The position numbers and the translations under genes were made by a program. The notes under the pieces are model-generated. The model was not told the origin of the DNA. It worked only from the letters and a program-made list of their open reading frames with translations, and searched no databases. Source: an uncultured Actinomycetota bacterium (GTDB lineage: Bacteria > Actinomycetota > Actinomycetes > JAHEKZ01). From it: DNA of 64,000 nucleotides. The stretch's first letter is position 1. Each line of letters begins with the position of its first letter. The stretch spans positions 862,683-926,682 of the forward strand of contig CAVURN010000001.1 of assembly GCA_963743915.1 (NCBI GenBank). The letters run 5' to 3'. Of this stretch, positions 4,254 to 14,864 are shown one piece after another.

Positions 4254-5367
4254 ATGAGCCTTCCGACGCCGGCCGGCGACCCGGCCCCAGCCCCCGCCCT
4301 CAGCAGCGATCCCTGCTGCACCGGTCCCCACGCTCCGCGCCAGCGGCCCTGGCGAGGTCCTGCAGGTGGTCCCGTACCTGCTCGGGTTCCGTCCCGAGGA
4401 GAGCGTGGTCCTGATCGCCCTGCGGGGCCGCCGCATCGCGGTCTCTGCCCGGTACGACCTCGAGGCACCCCCGGAGATGGCCGTCCCCTGGATGGTCGCC
4501 GCGGCCCGGGAGGGGGCGACCTCCGTCCTCGTCGCCGTGTACAGCGCCCTCCTGGACGGCCCGCCGCTCGCCCACCGGGAGCACGCGGACCGGCTCGCCG
4601 AGCTGGCGGCCGAACGTGAGCTGACCGTCACCGATCGCCTCGCGGTGGGGGCGGACCGCTGGTGGTCCTACGACTGCTCCAACCCGCACTGCTGTCCGCC
4701 CGAGGGCACCCCTGTCGACCCGACCGGTGCGGTGGCCGTCGGTGCGGTGGCCGAGGGTCTGGTGTCCCTGCCTCGGCGCTCCGATCTCGAGGCCGAGCTC
4801 GCACCGCTTCCCGTCCGGGTCGCCGAGGTGTCCGGTGCGCTCGACCGGGCGGACGAGGACACGCCGGTCGACCTGAGCCCCGAGGACCTTCGCGCCCGCG
4901 ACTGGGCGACGGTGCGTCGGTTCGTCCGGGAGAGCGAGCGACGCCAGGGGCCGATTCCCGCGGAGGAGGCCGCAGCGGTGCTCTGGGCGCTGCTCGACCT
5001 GCACGTGCGGGACGCGACGCTCGGCTACCTCGTCGACCGCCCCAAGCCCGAGGTGACCGGTGCCTGGCGCGAGCTGGTCAACGTCGCACCCCCGTTGTGG
5101 CGCGCACCGGTCGCCACGCTGTACGCCTTCTGGTGCTATGCCGCCGGACAGGGCGCTCGCACGAACGTGGGGATCGAGGTCGCCCTCGCGGCCGATCCGG
5201 ACTACTCCATGGCCCATCTGCTCGACCAGCTGGTCGCGTCCGGCGTCAACCCGCTCCGGTTCATCCCCGACCTCGCCAAGGAGTGCCGACCCATCGCCCG
5301 GCGGATCGAACGGAGACGACCACCGGGCGGACGGGGAAAGGCTCGACGCGGGAGGGCAGACGGGTGA
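4254..5367 (+). CDS. DUF4192 domain-containing protein (probable frameshift near 5' end; main frame 4258-5367)
   Basis: VPYLLGFRPEESVV, RWWSYDCSNPHCCPPEG, VRDA, ALAADPDYSMAHLL; family normally lies upstream of sigA/hrdB. Confidence 0.85.
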
Positions 5368-7415: not shown

Positions 7416-8869
7416 ATGAGCGCTGCTCGCTCGACCACCGCCAAGAAGGCCCCGGCCAAGAAGGCGGCCCCGAAGTCCAAGACCACGGCGAAGCCCTCTG
7501 CCAAGAGTGCCGCCACGGCTGCCAAGAAGCCCGGCAAGGCGGCCGTGAAGAAGGCGACGGCCAAGCCGGCGACCAAGAACGCCACCGCAAAGGCGACCGC
7601 CAAGAAGACGGCTGCGAAGAAGCCCGCCAAGGCAGCCGTGAAGAAGGCTCCGGCCAAGGCCGCGTGAAGAAGGCCCCCGCCAAGGCGCCAGTCAAGCAGT
7701 CCGCCGCGAAGAAGGACGAGCCGGCGAAGAAGACGTCCTCCAAGAAGACCGCCGGCAAGGCAGCTGCCACGACAGCCGCCCCGGCGAAGGGTGCCGGAGC
7801 CGGCGAGGCACTGGTCGAGATCCCTGTCGCCGATGACGGTCTGCCGGTCAGTGACGAGGAGATCGCCGAGGAGCTGGCGAAGGAGCCGGAGGAGCAGGGT
7901 TTCGTCATCTCGCACCGCGACGAGTCCGACGAGCCCGTCCAGCAGGTGACCGTCGCCGGCGCCACGGCCGACCCGGTCAAGGACTACCTCAAGCAGATCG
8001 GAAAGGTCGCCCTGCTCAACGCCGAGCAGGAGGTCGAGCTTGCCAAGCGCATCGAGGCCGGACTGTTCGCGGAAGAGAAGCTGAACGGCACCAAGAAGCT
8101 GTCGGCGAAGATGCACCGTGAGCTCGAGTGGATCGCCGAGGACGGTCGTCGCGCCAAGGACCACCTGCTCGAGGCGAACCTTCGCCTGGTCGTCTCGCTG
8201 GCCAAGCGCTACACCGGACGCGGCATGCTCTTCCTCGACCTCATCCAGGAGGGCAACCTCGGCCTGATCCGCGCCGTCGAGAAGTTCGACTACACCAAGG
8301 GCTACAAGTTCTCGACGTACGCGACCTGGTGGATCCGTCAGGCGATCACGCGCGCCATGGCCGACCAGGCCCGCACCATTCGTATCCCGGTGCACATGGT
8401 CGAGGTCATCAACAAGCTCGCCCGTGTCCAGCGCCAGATGCTGCAGGACCTCGGCCGCGAGCCGACGCCCGAGGAGCTCGCCAAGGAGCTCGACATGACG
8501 CCGGAGAAGGTCGTCGAGGTGCAGAAGTACGGCCGCGAGCCGATCTCGCTGCATACGCCTCTCGGCGAGGACGGTGACAGTGAGTTCGGTGACCTCATCG
8601 AGGACTCCGAGGCTGTCGTTCCCGCGGACGCCGTGTCCTTCACGCTGCTTCAGGAGCAGCTGCACGCGGTGCTCGACACGCTGTCGGACCGTGAGGCAGG
8701 CGTGGTGTCGATGCGGTTCGGGCTCACCGACGGACAGCCGAAGACGCTCGACGAGATCGGCAAGGTCTACGGCGTGACTCGTGAGCGCATCCGTCAGATA
8801 GAGAGCAAGACGATGAGCAAGCTCCGTCACCCGAGCCGCTCTCAGGTTCTGCGCGACTATCTGGACTAA
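7416..8869 (+). CDS. sigA: Principal RNA polymerase sigma factor SigA/HrdB with Lys/Ala-rich N-terminus (1-bp frameshift ~7662)
   Basis: [90 protein letters not shown]; AAGGAGG RBS before ATG 7416. Confidence 0.97.
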
Positions 8870-8871
8870 GG
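8850..8871 (+). repeat. 22-bp direct repeat copy 1 (putative att site), last codons and stop of sigA
   Basis: TGCGCGACTATCTGGACTAAGG, identical at 12487-12508. Confidence 0.9.
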
Positions 8872-8954
8872 AAATTCAGAGAAGACTGTAGAAACCTAGA
8901 CAGAATATGGGCTTTCGACGTTCTCTGGGTTGTGACTTGACGGGCACAGCGCTC

Positions 8955-9392
8955 TCAGTCATCTCCTGGGGTCAGGAGTCCATGTCGACGACGACAGTGC
9001 CGAGCGCGTCTTGGACCTGTGGTCCAAGAGCGAGGCAGCTTCATGGACAGAGGGAGTGAGCCTGCCCACCGAGGAGGGCGGAGCGGTGTACGCCGAGGGC
9101 GGCGTGCCCTTGTGATCACCAACCGCTATGAGCAAGATCCCAAGGTGCGCGAGGCGTGCATCGCGCACCACGGCACAACCTGCACCGTGTGTGGGTTCGA
9201 CTTCGAAGCCGCCTACGGGGAGCGGGAGCCGGATTCATCGAGGTGCACCACCTGGTCCCGCTGTCCGAGCTGGACGGCACCACCGAGGTCGACCCGGTCA
9301 CCAACATGCGACCGCTCTGCAGCAACTGCCACTCGATGATCCATCGCGGCGACCTGATCAGCCCCGACGAGCTCAAGAAGCTCCTGCTCTGA
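8955..9392 (+). pseudogene. McrA-like HNH endonuclease, 5'-truncated and frameshifted
   Basis: Pieces in three frames: GSGVHVDDDSAERVLDLW...YAEGG; NRYEQDPKVREACIAHHGTTCTVCGFDFEAAYGE; GFIEVHHLVPLSE...LCSNCHSMIH. Confidence 0.75.
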
Positions 9393-9411
9393 CCATCCGG
9401 ACGGTGATCGC

Positions 9412-9531
9412 TCACTCCGCTGCACCTGCCAGCCCCACGTCGGTCTGGGCCACGTCCAGGGGCACCACCACGAGCACCCCGCTGAACGTGTCTGTCCCCA
9501 CCAGATACGTGGTTCCGCTGTCGTGCACCAT
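9412..9531 (-). CDS. Possible 39-aa leaderless small protein
   Basis: ATG 9531 preceded at 6 nt by GATACT (-10-like); MVHDSGTTYLVGTDTFSGVLVVVPLDVAQTDVGLAGAAE. Confidence 0.3.
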   Translation of the reverse strand: MVHDSGTTYLVGTDTFSGVLVVVPLDVAQTDVGLAGAAE

Positions 9532-9636
9532 GACCCCAGTATCGCCACGGTGACTGACACCATCGGTAGACCCCGCTGAGCCAGAGGACGTAGGACCCGA
9601 TACACCGCCCCAGATTCGCGGTAGCGAGGTCAACTC

Positions 9637-9665
9637 CCGTAAATCGGACGCCGTCCGATTTACGG
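9637..9665. promoter_or_regulatory. Perfect 29-bp palindrome (14-1-14), candidate operator or hairpin
   Basis: CCGTAAATCGGACG-C-CGTCCGATTTACGG, about 77 bp upstream of the diguanylate cyclase start. Confidence 0.6.
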
Positions 9666-9741
9666 CGACTTGGGTTACCTGCTCGGCGGTACTGCGAGCG
9701 CTAGCGACTGTCGATAGTTGCTGGAGAACGGGGGTTCTCAC

Positions 9742-11160
9742 ATGGACGTTCCTTGGCGAACGCTTGTCTGGGTACTGAGGGCTGGTCACTCGGCGATGCT
9801 GCTCCTGCACGATGACGGTCGCGTTCGCTGGGGCAATCGGGCCGCTCGACGGCTGTTCGCAGACGCCCGGCTCCGCACAGGTGCCTTCTCCGATCTGTTC
9901 AGCGACTCAGTCGCAGCGACCGCGTTCCTCAATGCGGTGCGGGCCGCCCCGATCGGCTACAGCGCAGGATGGCGCACTTTGCACCGCCATCGTGATGGAT
10001 GGGTTCAGGAGTTCTTCGTAGAGGCCAGCCGCATCGATGACCCCGAAGGCACCGGCATCCTGGTCACGGTGACCTCCCCTCCAGTGGAGATGCTCGAAAC
10101 CGACTCGCTGACCGGCTGCCGAACTCGCCGCGCCCTGGATCGCGATCTCGCCGCGGTCAACGGGGTCGGCTGCCTGGCGTTCGCAGACCTTGACGGCATG
10201 AAATCCGTCAATGAGACCTACGGACACGTCGCAGGCGACATGGTCCTGATCCATGTCGCTGACCGGCTGCGTCGCAGCCTTGCCGGTGAAGGAGCGGTCT
10301 ATCGGATCGGTGGTGATGAGTTCGCCATCGTGCTGAACACGCCCGATGTGAAAGTTGCGAACAATCAGGTGCGGGCAGCCCTTCACGAGATGTCCCAGCC
10401 GGTGGAGGTCCAGCCTGGGATAGAGAAGGTCATCACAGCAGGGGTGGGAATCGTTTCCCTGGAGTCAAAGTCACGCATCGAAGCCATGCGTGAGGCAGAC
10501 ATCGCGCTGTATCACGGCAAGGCCCATGGGCCCAACACCGTGGTGGTCGGGAGTGATCTGCCGGAATGGGCCCGTGACCGCAGGTCGCTTGTCCTGACTG
10601 CGGCGAATCTGGCCGAGGAGCGCGATCGCCTCGCCGAACTGGCCCGAACCGACCCGCTCACCGAGCTGGCCAACCGTCTGGCGCTCAACGAGGATTCGTT
10701 CCGCTTGTTCACCACAAGCCGACGCAACGGCCGACCGTACTCGGTGCTCTTCGTCGACATTGACCTCTTCCACCACTACAACAAGAACCACGGCGATGCA
10801 GCAGGCGACAAGGCGCTCATCGAGGTGGGCAGGATCATGCAGTCGGTCTGTCGATCGGAAGATCGTGTCTTCCGCAAAGGCGGCGAGGAGTTCATCGTGC
10901 TGCTTCCTGAGACTAGCCTCGCCGAGGCCGCCGCAATCGCAGAGCGTCTACGTCTTGCGGTGTTCGAGCGACAGATTCCGCATGAGAAGCGCCCAGACGG
11001 CGCGGAGATTCTCACGGTGGTCGTAGGCGTCGCCGAGAGCGAAGAAGCCGACCAGAAACCAGAGCAAGTGTGGGAGCGGGCTGCTGCCCCACTGATGGCG
11101 GTCAAGCGCGACCCAGCCGCCCCGAGGAACTGCGTCCGAGTTCACGGCGTTCAGGGGTAG
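9742..11160 (+). CDS. PAS-like - GGDEF - GGDEF tandem diguanylate cyclase
   Basis: Domain 1: TDSLTG...ADLDGMKSVNETYGHVAGD...YRIGGDEF...ADIALYHGK. Domain 2: TDPLTELANR...VDIDLFHHYNKNHGDAAGD...RSED...FRKGGEEF. Confidence 0.92.
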   Translation: MDVPWRTLVWVLRAGHSAMLLLHDDGRVRWGNRAARRLFADARLRTGAFSDLFSDSVAATAFLNAVRAAPIGYSAGWRTLHRHRDGWVQEFFVEASRIDDPEGTGILVTVTSPPVEMLETDSLTGCRTRRALDRDLAAVNGVGCLAFADLDGMKSVNETYGHVAGDMVLIHVADRLRRSLAGEGAVYRIGGDEFAIVLNTPDVKVANNQVRAALHEMSQPVEVQPGIEKVITAGVGIVSLESKSRIEAMREADIALYHGKAHGPNTVVVGSDLPEWARDRRSLVLTAANLAEERDRLAELARTDPLTELANRLALNEDSFRLFTTSRRNGRPYSVLFVDIDLFHHYNKNHGDAAGDKALIEVGRIMQSVCRSEDRVFRKGGEEFIVLLPETSLAEAAAIAERLRLAVFERQIPHEKRPDGAEILTVVVGVAESEEADQKPEQVWERAAAPLMAVKRDPAAPRNCVRVHGVQG

Positions 11161-11177
11161 CAGTGGGATCAGAGCAC

Positions 11178-11447
11178 ATGTGGGCGTATGAGTGTCCCGT
11201 CCATTGCCGAAGGGGATGTCACTCCGCGTATCGAGGCTGTGGTGGACCCACCTACGGGCTCGTGTTCGACAAGATCCCGGGTCAAGGCGTGGTCAGTTAC
11301 ACAGTCTGCAAAGCGCACTACGGTCCAGGCATCGTCCGAGTGACCCCCGTTGAACCGTGGTACGACAACAAGCGCATCTATGACCGGCCCGGACCGAAGA
11401 CGTGCGAATGCTCGAACCCGGACGAGTTCGCCCGAGGCCGTTACTGA
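11178..11447 (+). CDS. Small Cys/His-rich hypothetical protein A (89 aa)
   Basis: ECPVHC...C-x22-CKAH...TCEC; starts 17 nt after the cyclase stop; TGATG overlap with the next ORF. Confidence 0.55.
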   Translation: MWAYECPVHCRRGCHSAYRGCGGPTYGLVFDKIPGQGVVSYTVCKAHYGPGIVRVTPVEPWYDNKRIYDRPGPKTCECSNPDEFARGRY

Positions 11448-11899
11448 TGGCCGAGATCGACGACGAGGCCTGCCCCATCCATTGCTCCGGAGGGATCATT
11501 AAATGCCGCCGCCCACCCGTCGCCACAGGCATCGGACCCGGCATTGGTTCAGGCTCCGCTTCTCGCTCTCTATGTGCCAACCACGTGAAGGGATGGTTAC
11601 GCGCCATTCGACGAGGACGGGACTATCGAACGATCTGGGGGTGGCTTTCGTGGCCAGGCTGGCAGGCAAGCGATGAGACGTGGGTTGTCTGGGGGATCAT
11701 CCATTGCGACACCTGCTGCTGCGACCGGTCCAACCTTCCGCTGCTTCGCGGCCCGATCGTGCCATGGGAACGACCCGGCACTCCGTACGAGGGCGTGCGG
11801 CAGGGAAAGATTGAGGTTGGCGTGCTCGGGGACAGGCCTGACGGTAGGCGCGGACTATGCGAGCCGGGAAGAGTGCCCTATCCACCGCCGGTGGGGTGA
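11447..11899 (+). CDS. Small Cys/His-rich hypothetical protein B (paralog of A)
   Basis: ACPIHC...C-x22-CANH...TCCC; ATG overlaps the stop of A. Confidence 0.55.
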   Translation: MAEIDDEACPIHCSGGIIKCRRPPVATGIGPGIGSGSASRSLCANHVKGWLRAIRRGRDYRTIWGWLSWPGWQASDETWVVWGIIHCDTCCCDRSNLPLLRGPIVPWERPGTPYEGVRQGKIEVGVLGDRPDGRRGLCEPGRVPYPPPVG

Positions 11900-12122
11900 A
11901 TGGGGGCGCGTTGGCGCCGCAACGAAAGGGGGGGTGATGCACCGAGAGATGAAGCGCCCCGAGTCCTTCTCCGAGATTGCCGACGATTGGTCGGCGATCT
12001 GTTGGCATATCTCAGGTGTACCTGCCTATCGCCATCCGGTGGGAACGAACTCCGCTACTAAGGAAGAGGAAGCCAGGAAGGCAGGGCGTTCTCCTACCAT
12101 TGCCATCTCAGGCAGACCGTGA
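11857..12122 (+). pseudogene. Degenerate third copy of the CP[VI]H module (start uncertain)
   Basis: ECPIHRRWG at 11871 resembles ECPVHCRRG of A; later ICWH; no clean in-frame start. Confidence 0.3.
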
Positions 12123-12156
12123 CGACCGTACTCACCCACCGACCAGGGGAGATGTC

Positions 12157-12393
12157 ATGAACGACGTGAGCTTGGCGGCGTTGATCTCCGCATGCGGAAC
12201 CGTGGGGGCCTTCATGCTCGTGTACCACCTCGGTAAGCGGGTCGGACGCCGAGAAGAACGAACTGAACGCCACTTGCGCATGGCGAGAGAGGACAAACTC
12301 CAACGACTGCGCGAACTTACCTGGCACCAGGAGCGCGCCTGGCACCAGGAACACGGCCGCTCGTCAACCCCCGATACACCGTGGCGCGACTGA
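12157..12393 (+). CDS. Small single-TM hypothetical protein
   Basis: AGGGGAG RBS; hydrophobic SLAALISACGTVGAFMLVYHLG followed by a charged tail. Confidence 0.55.
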   Translation: MNDVSLAALISACGTVGAFMLVYHLGKRVGRREERTERHLRMAREDKLQRLRELTWHQERAWHQEHGRSSTPDTPWRD

Positions 12394-12410
12394 GCAGCCA
12401 CTGCTCAGTC
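12388..12410 (+). terminator. 10-bp stem-loop over the stop codon of the last island gene
   Basis: GACTGAGCAG-CCA-CTGCTCAGTC. Confidence 0.45.
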
Positions 12411-12486
12411 CAGGATTCTGCACCGCACAGCGCTCGTGACCTGCACGTTTGCCGAGCACGGTCGTACAGCGCTCGGGCGTTTCGAG

Positions 12487-12508
12487 TGCGCGACTATCTG
12501 GACTAAGG
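12487..12508 (+). repeat. 22-bp direct repeat copy 2 (putative att site)
   Basis: TGCGCGACTATCTGGACTAAGG, identical to 8850-8871. Confidence 0.9.
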
Positions 12509-12607
12509 TCCGGCGCGGCCAGTACCACGCCGTCACGATTGGCTGTCAGCAGGTTGCGCCCATCCATCTGCCAGGAACGGCTGCTGGGGATACAGCTGGT
12601 CGCAGCG

Positions 12608-13522
12608 TTAGGAGAAGATGGAGACGCGACGCACCTCGTCGGGGGCCGGGTGAGTGAGCGAGTCTGCAGATCCGCCCTCTGCGTACTCCACGCGGTACTC
12701 AGCCGCTCTCAGGCCGTCGAGCATGCCTTCGATCATGGTGTTCGTGTCGACCTTCGTCACCTCGACGTCCTTGCCGCTGAAGCTCAACGATTGGGGGAGC
12801 CCGTTCTCGATCACGGTCATGACCGCAGTGGTTCCCTCGTACGCCTCCTGCGGCAGGGAACCCCCGAAGTCAGTTCCCAAGAGCCTGAGGGCAAGGCCGC
12901 TGGGGAGGCTCCCGTGGATCGTCGTGGTCGAGCCGGTCTGCTCAGCTGCGATCGGCTCGAACTCCGCCAGACCAGCGATCCACTGCTCCTCAAGGTTGGA
13001 CTCGACCTTCTCGGTGGTGTCGGTGATGTCAGCGGTGATGTCGGACCACTTGGTCGGTGGCCCCGCGATTCTCTGCCATCGTGCGTAGTAGCGACCCTCG
13101 ACATGGAGGTACTCGATCAACGTGTCGCCCGCTGGATCGTCGGCACGAGAGGAAGCGTGAAAGGCACCGGTCGCCGGCATCCAGAGGATCTCCGCGAGCA
13201 TCGGGATCGGGAGGTCCCACGACCCTTGGTCGTTGTGCATCGTGACATCGACCGCCTCCAGGTGGTTCATGGCCGCCATGGCATCGGCCAGCTGACGTTC
13301 AGCAGCTGCACTGTCGAGCTGGACCGTCTCGCCCTCCGGGGGCGTGGTGGCACTCGACGGCACTGCGGTCGGCGATGCTGGTGTCGACTGGGTCCCTGCG
13401 TCCACTGAGGCTGCGATGTCAGTCGGGCTCGTGGGTGACTCAGCCTCCCCGCACCCTGCGGTCAGGCCAGCTGTCAGGACCGCCATGGCAGCGACGGAGC
13501 GCAAGCGTCCGGGCATGGTCAT
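12608..13522 (-). CDS. Hypothetical lipoprotein (possibly LolA/LppX-like fold)
   Basis: Signal peptide ending in lipobox LTAG-C, S/T/P-rich linker, then a globular domain; start approximate. Confidence 0.6.
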   Translation of the reverse strand: MTMPGRLRSVAAMAVLTAGLTAGCGEAESPTSPTDIAASVDAGTQSTPASPTAVPSSATTPPEGETVQLDSAAAERQLADAMAAMNHLEAVDVTMHNDQGSWDLPIPMLAEILWMPATGAFHASSRADDPAGDTLIEYLHVEGRYYARWQRIAGPPTKWSDITADITDTTEKVESNLEEQWIAGLAEFEPIAAEQTGSTTTIHGSLPSGLALRLLGTDFGGSLPQEAYEGTTAVMTVIENGLPQSLSFSGKDVEVTKVDTNTMIEGMLDGLRAAEYRVEYAEGGSADSLTHPAPDEVRRVSIFS

Positions 13523-13613
13523 GGTCACCCCCGTCGCTGTCGAGGGGCCCAGGGTACGCGCGAGGTGCCGTGAGTTGGAGCGGAATCGCGCACTCGAAGA
13601 GCAGGATTGGCGC

Positions 13614-14306
13614 ATGGTGACTGCAGCGGTCCGCCGCGTCGACTTCGGGCACTTCGTCCGTCCGGTCCGGGAGACGGGTACGGGGGCTCCACGTGTCGAG
13701 GCCCTGCTGGGGTACGTGGTCGAGCATTCCGGTGGCGTTCTCCTCTTCGACACGGGGATGGGGAGCCGTGCCGATGTCGACGCGCACTACCGCCCGACAC
13801 GAACGGGTCTACCGCAAGCCTTGCGAACAGTCGGGTACCGGCTCGATGAGATCACCGAAGTAGCCAACTGTCACCTTCACTTCGATCACTGCGGCGGCAA
13901 CCCAGTGCTCGCCGGGCGACCGTTCTTCGCCCAGGCCACCGAGCTGGAGGTGGCCAGGCACGCGGAGGGCTACACAATCGAAGGACTCGTGGACCCAACG
14001 GGGTGCCGTTGGCAGGAGCTGGACGGCGAGACAGAGATCTTGCCCGGCGTCACGCTCATCCCGACACCCGGGCACACGGATGGCCACCAGTCGCTCGTGG
14101 TCCGCGGCCGCGATGGAGTCGTCATCGTCGCGGGACAGAGCCACGAGAGTGCGAGTGGGTTCGCGAGTGATGTCCTCGCCCTGAGGGCACACCGCGACGG
14201 CGTCAGCGAGCCCTTGCCGGTTGCTCCTGAGTGGATGTCGGTGCTCCTGGCGATGGATCCCGCATACGTCGTATTCGCGCACGACCACTCAATCTGGAGG
14301 CCCTGA
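13614..14306 (+). CDS. N-acyl-homoserine lactonase-family MBL-fold metallohydrolase
   Basis: LLFDTG, CHLHFDHCGG (HxHxDH), TPGHTDGHQS, VFAHD. Confidence 0.85.
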   Translation: MVTAAVRRVDFGHFVRPVRETGTGAPRVEALLGYVVEHSGGVLLFDTGMGSRADVDAHYRPTRTGLPQALRTVGYRLDEITEVANCHLHFDHCGGNPVLAGRPFFAQATELEVARHAEGYTIEGLVDPTGCRWQELDGETEILPGVTLIPTPGHTDGHQSLVVRGRDGVVIVAGQSHESASGFASDVLALRAHRDGVSEPLPVAPEWMSVLLAMDPAYVVFAHDHSIWRP

Positions 14307-14864
14307 CCGAATCCGCTCGCCGGGGCGGTTGAAGATGCTGATCAGCTCTACGGGTCCGGCTCCCGTGCTGCCGAACCAGTGCGGCACCTGGGTGTCGAAC
14401 TCAGCGGCCTCACCGACCGCCAGGACGCGGTCTTCCTCGGCCACGATGAGGCGCAGTGCTCCGGACAGCACAAAGAGCCACTCGTTGCCCTCGTGGCTTC
14501 GCCGACGAGGTTCGGACAGGCTGGAAGGGATGACGATCTTCCAGGCCTGGACCGCGTTCGGTTCTGTGGTCAGCGGAATCACCGTTCGCTCCTTCACGCG
14601 GCGGGGGCGCATCCAGATGCGCGGATCGCCGCTGTCGGGAGCACCCACAAGGTCGTCCAGCGGGATGCGATACGTCCATGCAAGGGGAAGAAGGAGCTCG
14701 AGACTGGGTCGTCGCTGACCGGTCTCGAGACGTGACAGCGTGCTCTTGGAGATGCCGGTCGCCTCGGACGCCTCGACGAGCGTCAGACCGCGAGTCTTCC
14801 GGATACCGCGGAGCCGGCGACCGACGCCGGTGAGGGAAGCATCGATCTGGCTAGCCTGATCCAT
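14289..14864 (-). CDS. XRE-family HTH + cupin transcriptional regulator
   Basis: TGISKSTLSRLETGQRRPSLELL; HEGNEWLFVLSG...FDTQVPH. Confidence 0.92.
   Translation of the reverse strand: MDQASQIDASLTGVGRRLRGIRKTRGLTLVEASEATGISKSTLSRLETGQRRPSLELLLPLAWTYRIPLDDLVGAPDSGDPRIWMRPRRVKERTVIPLTTEPNAVQAWKIVIPSSLSEPRRRSHEGNEWLFVLSGALRLIVAEEDRVLAVGEAAEFDTQVPHWFGSTGAGPVELISIFNRPGERIRSGPPD

Follow-up and report, generated by a model that had tools for sequence, protein, structure and literature searches.

Analysis of a 64,000-nt stretch from the genome of an uncultured actinobacterium (hereafter, the window) identifies, directly behind a diguanylate cyclase gene, a small Cys/His-rich open reading frame, ORF A, which homologues and gene calls together establish as a real and very narrowly distributed gene. 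The reading that we favor, and to which we assign a probability of about 0.6, is that the ORF A protein likely binds two metal ions, that the following ORF B is a diverged paralogue, that a third copy has decayed, and that all of these are strain-specific cargo of a genomic island. ORF B would have arisen from ORF A by an old tandem duplication, with its candidate ligands kept and nearly everything else changed, and selection for metal binding would have acted on it through most of its past; it may still be expressed. The third, A-type copy would have decayed to a frameshifted fragment. The three copies, on one strand behind the cyclase gene and before the gene for a putative small membrane protein (ORF D), would form a unit that is the strain-specific cargo of a flexible island starting from the hrdB stop codon. 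The motif is unique to the A/B locus in the genome, and the island context holds.

Genomic setting and the cyclase gene

The GC content of the window, in 2-kb bins, is 63-73%, and is lowest (63-67%) from 8 to 16 kb. The cyclase gene (positions 9742-11160, forward strand) encodes a predicted PAS-GGDEF-GGDEF protein, as assigned from Pfam (GGDEF, PF00990, E 1.5e-59, in two stretches; PAS_4, E 9.6e-4), from NCBIfam (TIGR00254, E 2.8e-58) and from motifs in the translation, which reads RIGGDEF and RKGGEEF, i.e. the GG[DE]EF active-site motif is present, with RSED (RxxD) five residues ahead of GGEEF in the second GGDEF domain. The protein (9742-11157) is an exact entry in the protein collection searched, and the gene ends with a TAG stop codon at 11158-11160.

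Further along the same strand, ORF D (12157-12393, 78 residues) is predicted to encode a small membrane protein, hydrophobic in a segment at its N terminus and charged in its tail; GGGGAG lies 5 nt upstream of it. Its exact protein is likewise in the collection, the entry stemming from NCBI and ENA annotation of the same contig, and a slightly longer read of it (12148-12390) matched no family in Pfam, PHROGs, NCBIfam or PADLOC. Rfam searches gave nothing real within 8800-14500, no tRNA gene was found in the window, and no consensus promoter-like or terminator-like site was found in 8800-12700.

ORF A is a gene

The first-pass annotation had ORF A run from ATG 11178 to TGA 11445-11447, starting 17 nt after the cyclase stop and reading ECPVHC-x10-C-x22-CKAH...TCEC, and in all of these respects it was exact. 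The true start is, however, probably GTG 11163 rather than ATG 11178, giving a protein of 94 residues (11163-11447, forward strand; 89 residues from the ATG), because the translation from the GTG, VGSEHMWA, matches the N-termini of two related proteins, P0002 and P0005 (both MGSEHMWA), because AGGGG lies 5 nt upstream of the GTG, and because the GTG is 2 nt past the cyclase stop.

A phmmer search of 1.84 billion representative sequences with ORF A gave two matches, P0001 (91% identity) and the 102-residue P0002 (58% identity, E 1.2e-15), and a word-index search gave one cluster, that of P0001, again at 91% identity. Four sequences, drawn from Logan, ENA and NCBI assemblies, make up the P0001 cluster, among them the annotation of the same contig; ORF A is thus called as a gene in all three types of assembly, and this, together with a 58% identical homologue with all ligands, upholds the earlier claim that it is real. 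The candidate ligands of ORF A are C6, H9, C10, C21, C44, H47, C76 and C78 (numbered from the Met at 11178). All eight, along with the C-x22-CxxH spacing, are invariant in all four sequences of an alignment of ORF A, P0001, P0002 and residues 1-100 of ORF B, the invariant columns of which include C6, P7, H9, C10, C21, C44, H47, C76 and C78. The Cys and His residues picked out by the first-pass annotation are therefore those conserved in ORF A, its strain variants, P0002 and ORF B.

C14 and H15 of ORF A are not kept in P0001, and the differences of P0001 and P0005 from the window are clustered at residues 12-18. In P0002 the loop after C10 is 13 residues longer than in ORF A, with the 22 residues before CxxH kept, and the C termini of the two proteins are nearly identical (GPKTCEC[SH]NPDEFARGRY), the GSEHMWA head also being common to both. 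A contig from another sequencing run (X3) differs from the window at three places over 11184-11432, of which, with codons read by hand, 11312 and 11339 are synonymous and 11329 gives G51D. A second run contig (X1) skips 11208-11414 (207 nt, with a side of 36); this may be an in-frame deletion variant, but a P0002-like homologue aligning at its conserved ends only is in our view likelier.

In codon usage, ORF A scores +0.17 bits per codon under a genome-wide model and +0.09 under one built from 57 low-GC3 ORFs. None of the other five frames scores as high, but under the low-GC3 model the value falls short of 0.158, the 5th percentile for chunks of true genes. The predicted pI is about 8.5. A 166-nt contig from an RNA library (X20) is identical to the window over 11164-11301, which is a weak hint of ORF A transcription given that DNA can occur in RNA libraries. 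The X20 contigs do not cover 11494-12345, but, as these are assembled contigs with some records filtered out, this is uninformative.

Distribution of the family

Neither ORF A nor ORF B has a match above threshold in Pfam, NCBIfam, PHROG or PADLOC, such that no known domain family was found for either and the earlier view of the family as unassignable stands for every library tried. ORF A has a sub-threshold match to Pfam CpG_bind_C (E 0.19; 11.9 bits against a cut-off of 26.3) that ORF B does not share, and P0002 has one weak PHROG match (E 0.005) with no domain passing. A profile of the four aligned sequences found no solved relative among PDB chains at E up to 10; in the ESM Atlas the best score for ORF A (0.83) was below the usable range, and ORF B had no usable match.

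The family is also very narrow. The DNA of 11100-12400 was not found in any of the 13 other genomes of the genus, and no relative of A or B was found in these 13 congeners or in six-frame searches of 40 related genomes, the best matches in the latter (E 0.004 with A, 0.02 with B) being short and many of them containing stops. Searches of 400 genomes of the class gave five matches with E 0.002-0.009 per genome, about chance level; of the three that were translated, two were without the ligand pattern and one, read in a frame with stops, was uninformative. Word-index searches with A, B and the four-row profile gave no family members beyond the P0001 cluster, and scans of genome, metagenome and viral contigs gave no further ones. 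With tblastn there was no phage match, and none of nine plasmid matches (E 0.3-0.9) was taken as a relative. The homologue searches thus returned P0001 and P0002 only. The stretch or parts of it occur, among the runs listed, in 20 metagenome runs from 15 studies, mostly of freshwater and sediment; contigs from four of these runs were compared with the window. The literature searched held nothing on a CPxHC...CxxH...CxC motif or on small Cys-rich partners of cyclases. The first-pass annotation put the locus forward as a candidate for an undescribed system, which is an overstatement for a family that comprises one species-level cluster and one other sequence; A and B are unassigned and very narrowly distributed, and are therefore better regarded as a variant among small Cys/His proteins.

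ORF B and the third copy

ORF B (11447-11899, forward strand, 150 residues) was correctly described as running from ATG 11447 to a stop codon at 11897-11899, as reading ACPIHC-x6-C-x22-CANH...TCCC, as overlapping ORF A by TGATG (11445-11449) and as having a 22-residue spacing identical to that of ORF A. It shares all eight ligands with ORF A, in unchanged order and with the same x22 spacing, within residues 1-96 (nt 11447-11735), whereas its tail looks unconstrained, the last 55 residues being without a counterpart in ORF A. GAGG lies 9 nt upstream of its ATG, which shares its A with the ORF A stop codon TGA, an arrangement of the type expected for coupled translation of A and B.

The motif statistics argue for common descent. 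CP[VI]HC occurs twice in the genome, in ORF A and ORF B, 278 nt apart (4.57 M residues in six-frame segments of at least 60 residues; 2.9-Mb genome), and of 68 C-x22-C-x2-H occurrences genome-wide, two follow the ORF A and ORF B heads. When the residues of ORF B were shuffled with composition kept, CPxHC-x3-25-C-x22-CxxH occurred in 1 of 300,000 shuffles, as did a looser eight-ligand pattern. The patterns were derived beforehand from A and B, so these counts and shuffle figures are post hoc and make the case look stronger than it is, but by a margin far smaller than the effect that they show. Outside of the ligands, identity between ORF A and ORF B is below 20%. BLASTP finds an eight-residue match that is not significant (E 0.075), an HMM of A, P0001 and P0002 ranks ORF B 12th among 1013 six-frame segments of the window (E 7), and DNA similarity between the two is within shuffle range. 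We read ORF B as a strongly diverged tandem paralogue of ORF A, the present activity of which is uncertain, and suggest that it was long selected for its ligand set, because all eight ligands are kept at such low remaining identity.

The third, A-type copy is a remnant at 11871-12061 on the forward strand, with its head and tail motifs in different frames. Its head, ECPIHRRWG, starts at 11871 in the frame of ORF A; ICWH follows at 11999-12010; and the tail, CTCLSPSGGNELRY-stop, lies at 12017-12061 in a frame that differs from that of the head. The ECP[VI]H motif occurs twice in 5.84 M six-frame genome residues, at 11190 (in ORF A) and at 11871, and CxC-x10-Y-stop occurs twice in the six-frame genome, at 11403 (the end of ORF A) and at 12017. 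The extended head, ECPIHRRWGE, resembles the P0001/P0005 allele, ECPVHCRWGG; DNA similarity between ORF A and the remnant is within shuffle range. From these motif pairs in different frames, 11871-12061 is therefore assigned as a shortened, frameshifted A-type remnant. The first-pass annotation had an eroded third copy starting at 11871, which holds, and extending to 12122, which does not, the remnant ending at 12061. An open reading frame at 11673-12122 was also considered as a gene, and is not supported.

A diverged contig of the X1 run covers 11743-12102, with 10 nt inserted after 11833, one nucleotide missing at 11884 and one added after 11933; among the 29 substitution places listed (11773 to 12076), the three codon phases have 10, 10 and 9. 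The pattern fits unconstrained DNA, for one contig at depth 4.6 and for the places listed only, with 18 further places outside the count.

These data bear on the strongest alternative, that ORF A alone is functional, ORF B being a dead relic with its frame still open, and 11448-12156 being decaying noncoding DNA; we rate this as somewhat improbable, yet as a serious competitor. The codon scores of ORF B (-0.11 with the genome-wide model, -0.05 with the low-GC3 model) are neutral, about zero, and barely above that of its own antisense frame. Its 150- and 165-residue forms are absent from a 15-billion-protein collection that holds A, D and the cyclase, it is in no gene call looked up, and no homologue was found for it. 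Its 22-residue spacer is Gly/Ser/Pro-rich, unlike that of ORF A, and of low complexity, and the overlapping frame at 11673-12122, clearly no gene, is equally long, such that long chance frames do occur here. The indels and even phase spread of the X1 contig point in the same direction, although its indels within ORF B lie in the tail, past the ligand-bearing part, and come from one contig of low depth. Against a relic stand the retention of the eight ligands despite the loss of nearly all other identity, the 150 open codons, and the TGATG coupling and GAGG kept at the start of ORF B. We therefore keep the first-pass description of A and B as real, co-translated family members in part: it stands for A and for the coupling signals of B, whereas the similarity, codon usage and gene calls of B do not support it.

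Metal ligands and fold

The proposed metal-binding set of ORF A comprises six invariant Cys and two invariant His residues, arranged C-P-x-H-C, C, C-x2-H and C-x-C. In the favored reading, two structural metal ions would be held around a β-hairpin formed by the 22-residue spacer, with zinc as the default guess; the CPxHC head and the CxC tail would contribute five more ligands to those flanking the spacer, and eight ligands would suit two tetrahedral sites. We think it likely that A and B bind metal at all; within that likelihood, two structural zinc sites are the most likely arrangement, at about even odds, with an Fe-S cluster as the main alternative.

AlphaFold2 models of ORF A (from a three-row alignment; pLDDT 41.3) and of residues 1-100 of ORF B (five rows; pLDDT 35.2) are too poor for a fold search, and are unusable for the metal-site check that had been suggested, no metal site being seen in them. 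For what a model at pLDDT 41 is worth, the spacer is drawn as a β-hairpin (residues 30-52 of the 94-residue form), with C21 and C44/H47 at its foot.

Ligand sets of the Cys6His2 kind can hold either zinc or Fe-S clusters, and the presence of six invariant Cys and two His within about 75 residues would also be consistent with an iron-sulfur cluster, alone or together with one zinc, in place of two zinc ions, making the proteins redox-active. We consider this unlikely, because neither Pfam nor NCBIfam gives an Fe-S family match at E up to 1, and because the CPxH and CxxH pairs, flanking a hairpin predicted at low confidence, look more like zinc knuckles.

Relationship to the cyclase

Co-transcription of A and B with the cyclase gene can be inferred from the spacing and the common strand; given how close their starts lie to the preceding stop codons (2 nt and -1 nt), both are probably made from the cyclase transcript. 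It is a further step to propose, along the lines of the first-pass annotation, that A and B serve the cyclase as accessory subunits, sensing metal or redox conditions and adjusting c-di-GMP synthesis. The start of ORF A at 2 nt past the cyclase stop on the same strand, with B coupled to A, would be in keeping with such a role, as would the occurrence of A variants and cyclase variants on equal-sized contigs (5907 and 46790), which are probably the same contigs, both sizes belonging to one species-level cluster. The adjacency to the cyclase gene is, however, found within that one cluster, no relative of A or B was found in the 13 congeners, and the nearest cyclase gene in the genus, that of genome G004 (65-70% DNA identity, and apparently frameshifted), is followed by a convergent gene and not by A/B. 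The subunit proposal is accordingly doubtful, and a functional link to the cyclase is a guess made solely from operon position.

An island behind hrdB

When the hrdB regions of five relatives were compared with the window by blastn, all matches ended at 8868-8870, i.e. at the stop codon of hrdB (gene 7664-8869, forward strand), the 3' end of which (8845-8871) is also where a repeat element copies the gene; synteny returns at about 16820 with genome G003 and at about 22570 with G006. At the front of the island cargo there is an HNH endonuclease remnant (9019-9392, forward strand), apparently split by a frameshift, as it lies in two overlapping frames (9019-9339 and 9156-9392). It matches Pfam HNH (E 9.4e-8 on 9156-9389, from profile position 13 of 47) and a PADLOC type IV restriction enzyme model (1.2e-4).

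The unit of cyclase, A, B and D is closed by an imperfect-palindrome repeat of ~105 nt (12401-12509, forward strand), defined by nhmmer and by alignment with relatives and hrdB ends. It is the single full copy in the genome (nhmmer E 1.8e-30), the hrdB end being a partial match. The last ~35 nt of the repeat copy the hrdB 3' end, stop codon included, with a perfect 22-nt match between 12487-12508 and 8850-8871, and the hrdB 3' end recurs, as its inverted complement, in the first ~20 nt of the repeat. In the fold of the repeat consensus the ends pair (31 pairs, two with compensating double changes; RNA fold z-score -1.96). From the hrdB boundary and the repeat, we therefore take the cyclase, A, B and D to be cargo between the hrdB stop and one repeat.

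Of 20 genomes of the order, 11 have the repeat, and these span four of its five genera. Among genomes with a located hrdB, five (G000, G004, G006, G010 and G016) carry a copy in the same orientation at 1.3-5.6 kb past that gene, and G003 has none. G004 carries six copies over the 11 kb that follow hrdB, as against two in G010. The blocks between repeats are 0.8-5.5 kb with several genes each, and carry unrelated genes on both strands, mostly for secreted or membrane proteins. One G006 block encodes a small serine recombinase (Pfam Resolvase, E 7.2e-43), a 53%-identical relative of which is encoded elsewhere in the source genome. We interpret the island as a hot spot of insertion in which the repeats are att-like; these may serve as sites of recombination, constitute a MITE-like element or form a terminator module. 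A hot spot that starts at the hrdB stop codon and has a repeat mimicking hrdB would be of a new kind, the literature searched holding nothing on insertion at hrdB, and the variable blocks beside hrdB may matter more than the A/B family itself.

A bolder combination, that A and B form a new Cys6His2 two-metal fold that senses for the cyclase, and that the module is a cassette of a gene-capture site at hrdB, is in our view quite improbable as a whole. If true, ~105-nt palindromes that mimic hrdB would let gene blocks insert and swap behind an essential sigma-factor gene, a previously undescribed type of gene-capture site in the source actinobacterial family. Hardly credible is the converse proposal that none of the three copies is a gene, and that they are chance frames in high-GC intergenic DNA in which one DNA motif (TGYCCNRTCCAYYGC) recurs. 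In its favor, spurious frames of some length often arise in this DNA, coding statistics are weak, and at the nucleotide level the shared head amounts to a 15-nt repeat (D1). P0002, however, keeps the frame, both ends and all ligands, which contradicts the proposal for ORF A, and neither the constant x22 spacing nor the CxC tails can be put down to a DNA motif.

Comparison with known systems

If A and B do bind metal, CPxHC...C-x22-CxxH...CxC would be a new ligand signature among small metalloproteins, and A, B and the third copy would constitute a compact tandem family at three stages, i.e. intact, strongly diverged and decayed. The narrowness of the family limits its wider importance, unless it proves to act with the cyclase.

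The CPxH and CxxH pairs may resemble those of zinc-ribbon and zinc-knuckle mini-domains, in which CPxC and CxxC or CxxH knuckles flank a β-hairpin. The likeness would extend to the small size of the proteins, to the placing of a CPxH knuckle and a C-x2-H at either end of a spacer fixed at 22 residues, and to the ligands being the only strongly conserved residues between A and B. Unlike those domains, A and B have eight ligands rather than four, His in place of Cys in both knuckles and an extra CxC near the C terminus, and there is no profile match to a solved chain or family. With the WhiB-like (Wbl) proteins, A and B have in common that they are small, basic and Cys-bearing and come from a high-GC Gram-positive organism; CxxC is, however, part of the Wbl signature and is absent from A and B, and Pfam and NCBIfam searches at E up to 1 gave no match between them and a Wbl profile.

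For the island, the comparison is with integron arrays (IntI, attI, attC); integrons are not known from this actinobacterial group. In contrast to integrons, the repeats here are conserved in sequence and separate multi-gene blocks pointing both ways, and an IntI-type tyrosine integrase was found neither among 20 ORFs beside hrdB in G004, G006 and G010 nor among the window neighbors. As in integron arrays, imperfect palindromes of ~105 nt, in one orientation, separate variable blocks beside a fixed anchor, the counterpart of which would here be the 3' end of hrdB.

The region behind hrdB in the window and in relatives

The stop codon of hrdB, the main sigma-factor gene, at window 8868-8870 marks the exact end of nucleotide homology with five relatives, and homology restarts only at approximately 16820 (against genome G003) or 22570 (against G006), in window coordinates. 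Since homology is lost and regained in this manner, the nucleotide comparison identifies the 8.9-16.8 kb stretch, which has a lower G+C content, as a flexible island, one that possibly reaches as far as 22.5 kb.

Within this stretch, at window 12401-12509, lies an imperfect-palindrome repeat of ~105 nt, the 3' end of which carries a copy of the hrdB 3' end, and which is spanned by several contigs from the RNA-library run X20, a type of library in which DNA can be present. The repeat is contained in 11 of 20 genomes of the order, and in several of them copies sharing one orientation are arrayed immediately after hrdB. The positions of the repeat in relatives are 4635-15086 of L036 (G004), 4482-4585 and 8536-8638 of L034 (G010), and 11125-11235 of L035 (G006). 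It is also present at sites away from hrdB, e.g. on contig C17 of G010. In G006, a small serine recombinase gene (Resolvase plus HTH_7; L035 14590-15300), overlapped by a long, low-scoring antisense frame, sits in the variable DNA that separates hrdB from the repeat. In G010, post-hrdB sequence at L034 3183-3979 recurs at 8639-9278, after the second repeat and at the contig end; the recurring stretch, which takes in the start of a Wzz-like gene, reflects either a real duplication or an effect of assembly.

Variation and decay among the genes of the island

ORF A, the small Cys/His protein gene, is almost identical among its strain variants, apart from a tight cluster of differences at residues 12-18 (window 11211-11231), which reads RRGCHSAY in the window and P0003 versus RWGGTYKH in P0001 and P0005. 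The decayed third copy (11871-12061) has a head similar to the RWG allele, so the copies might have exchanged sequence. Separately, ORF D (12157-12393) contains an 18-nt tandem duplication, at window 12320-12355, giving WHQERA followed by WHQEHG.

The closest congeneric homologue of the PAS-GGDEF-GGDEF cyclase (9742-11160) lies on the minus strand at L019 1254-2760 (G004, contig C11). It is broken across three overlapping frames, and is therefore likely to be either a pseudogene or the product of faulty assembly.

Upstream of the cyclase gene, window 9019-9392 holds the remnant of an HNH endonuclease, seemingly divided over two overlapping frames. Of the models in the defence library, one for type IV methyl-directed restriction enzymes matches it best (E 1.2e-4).
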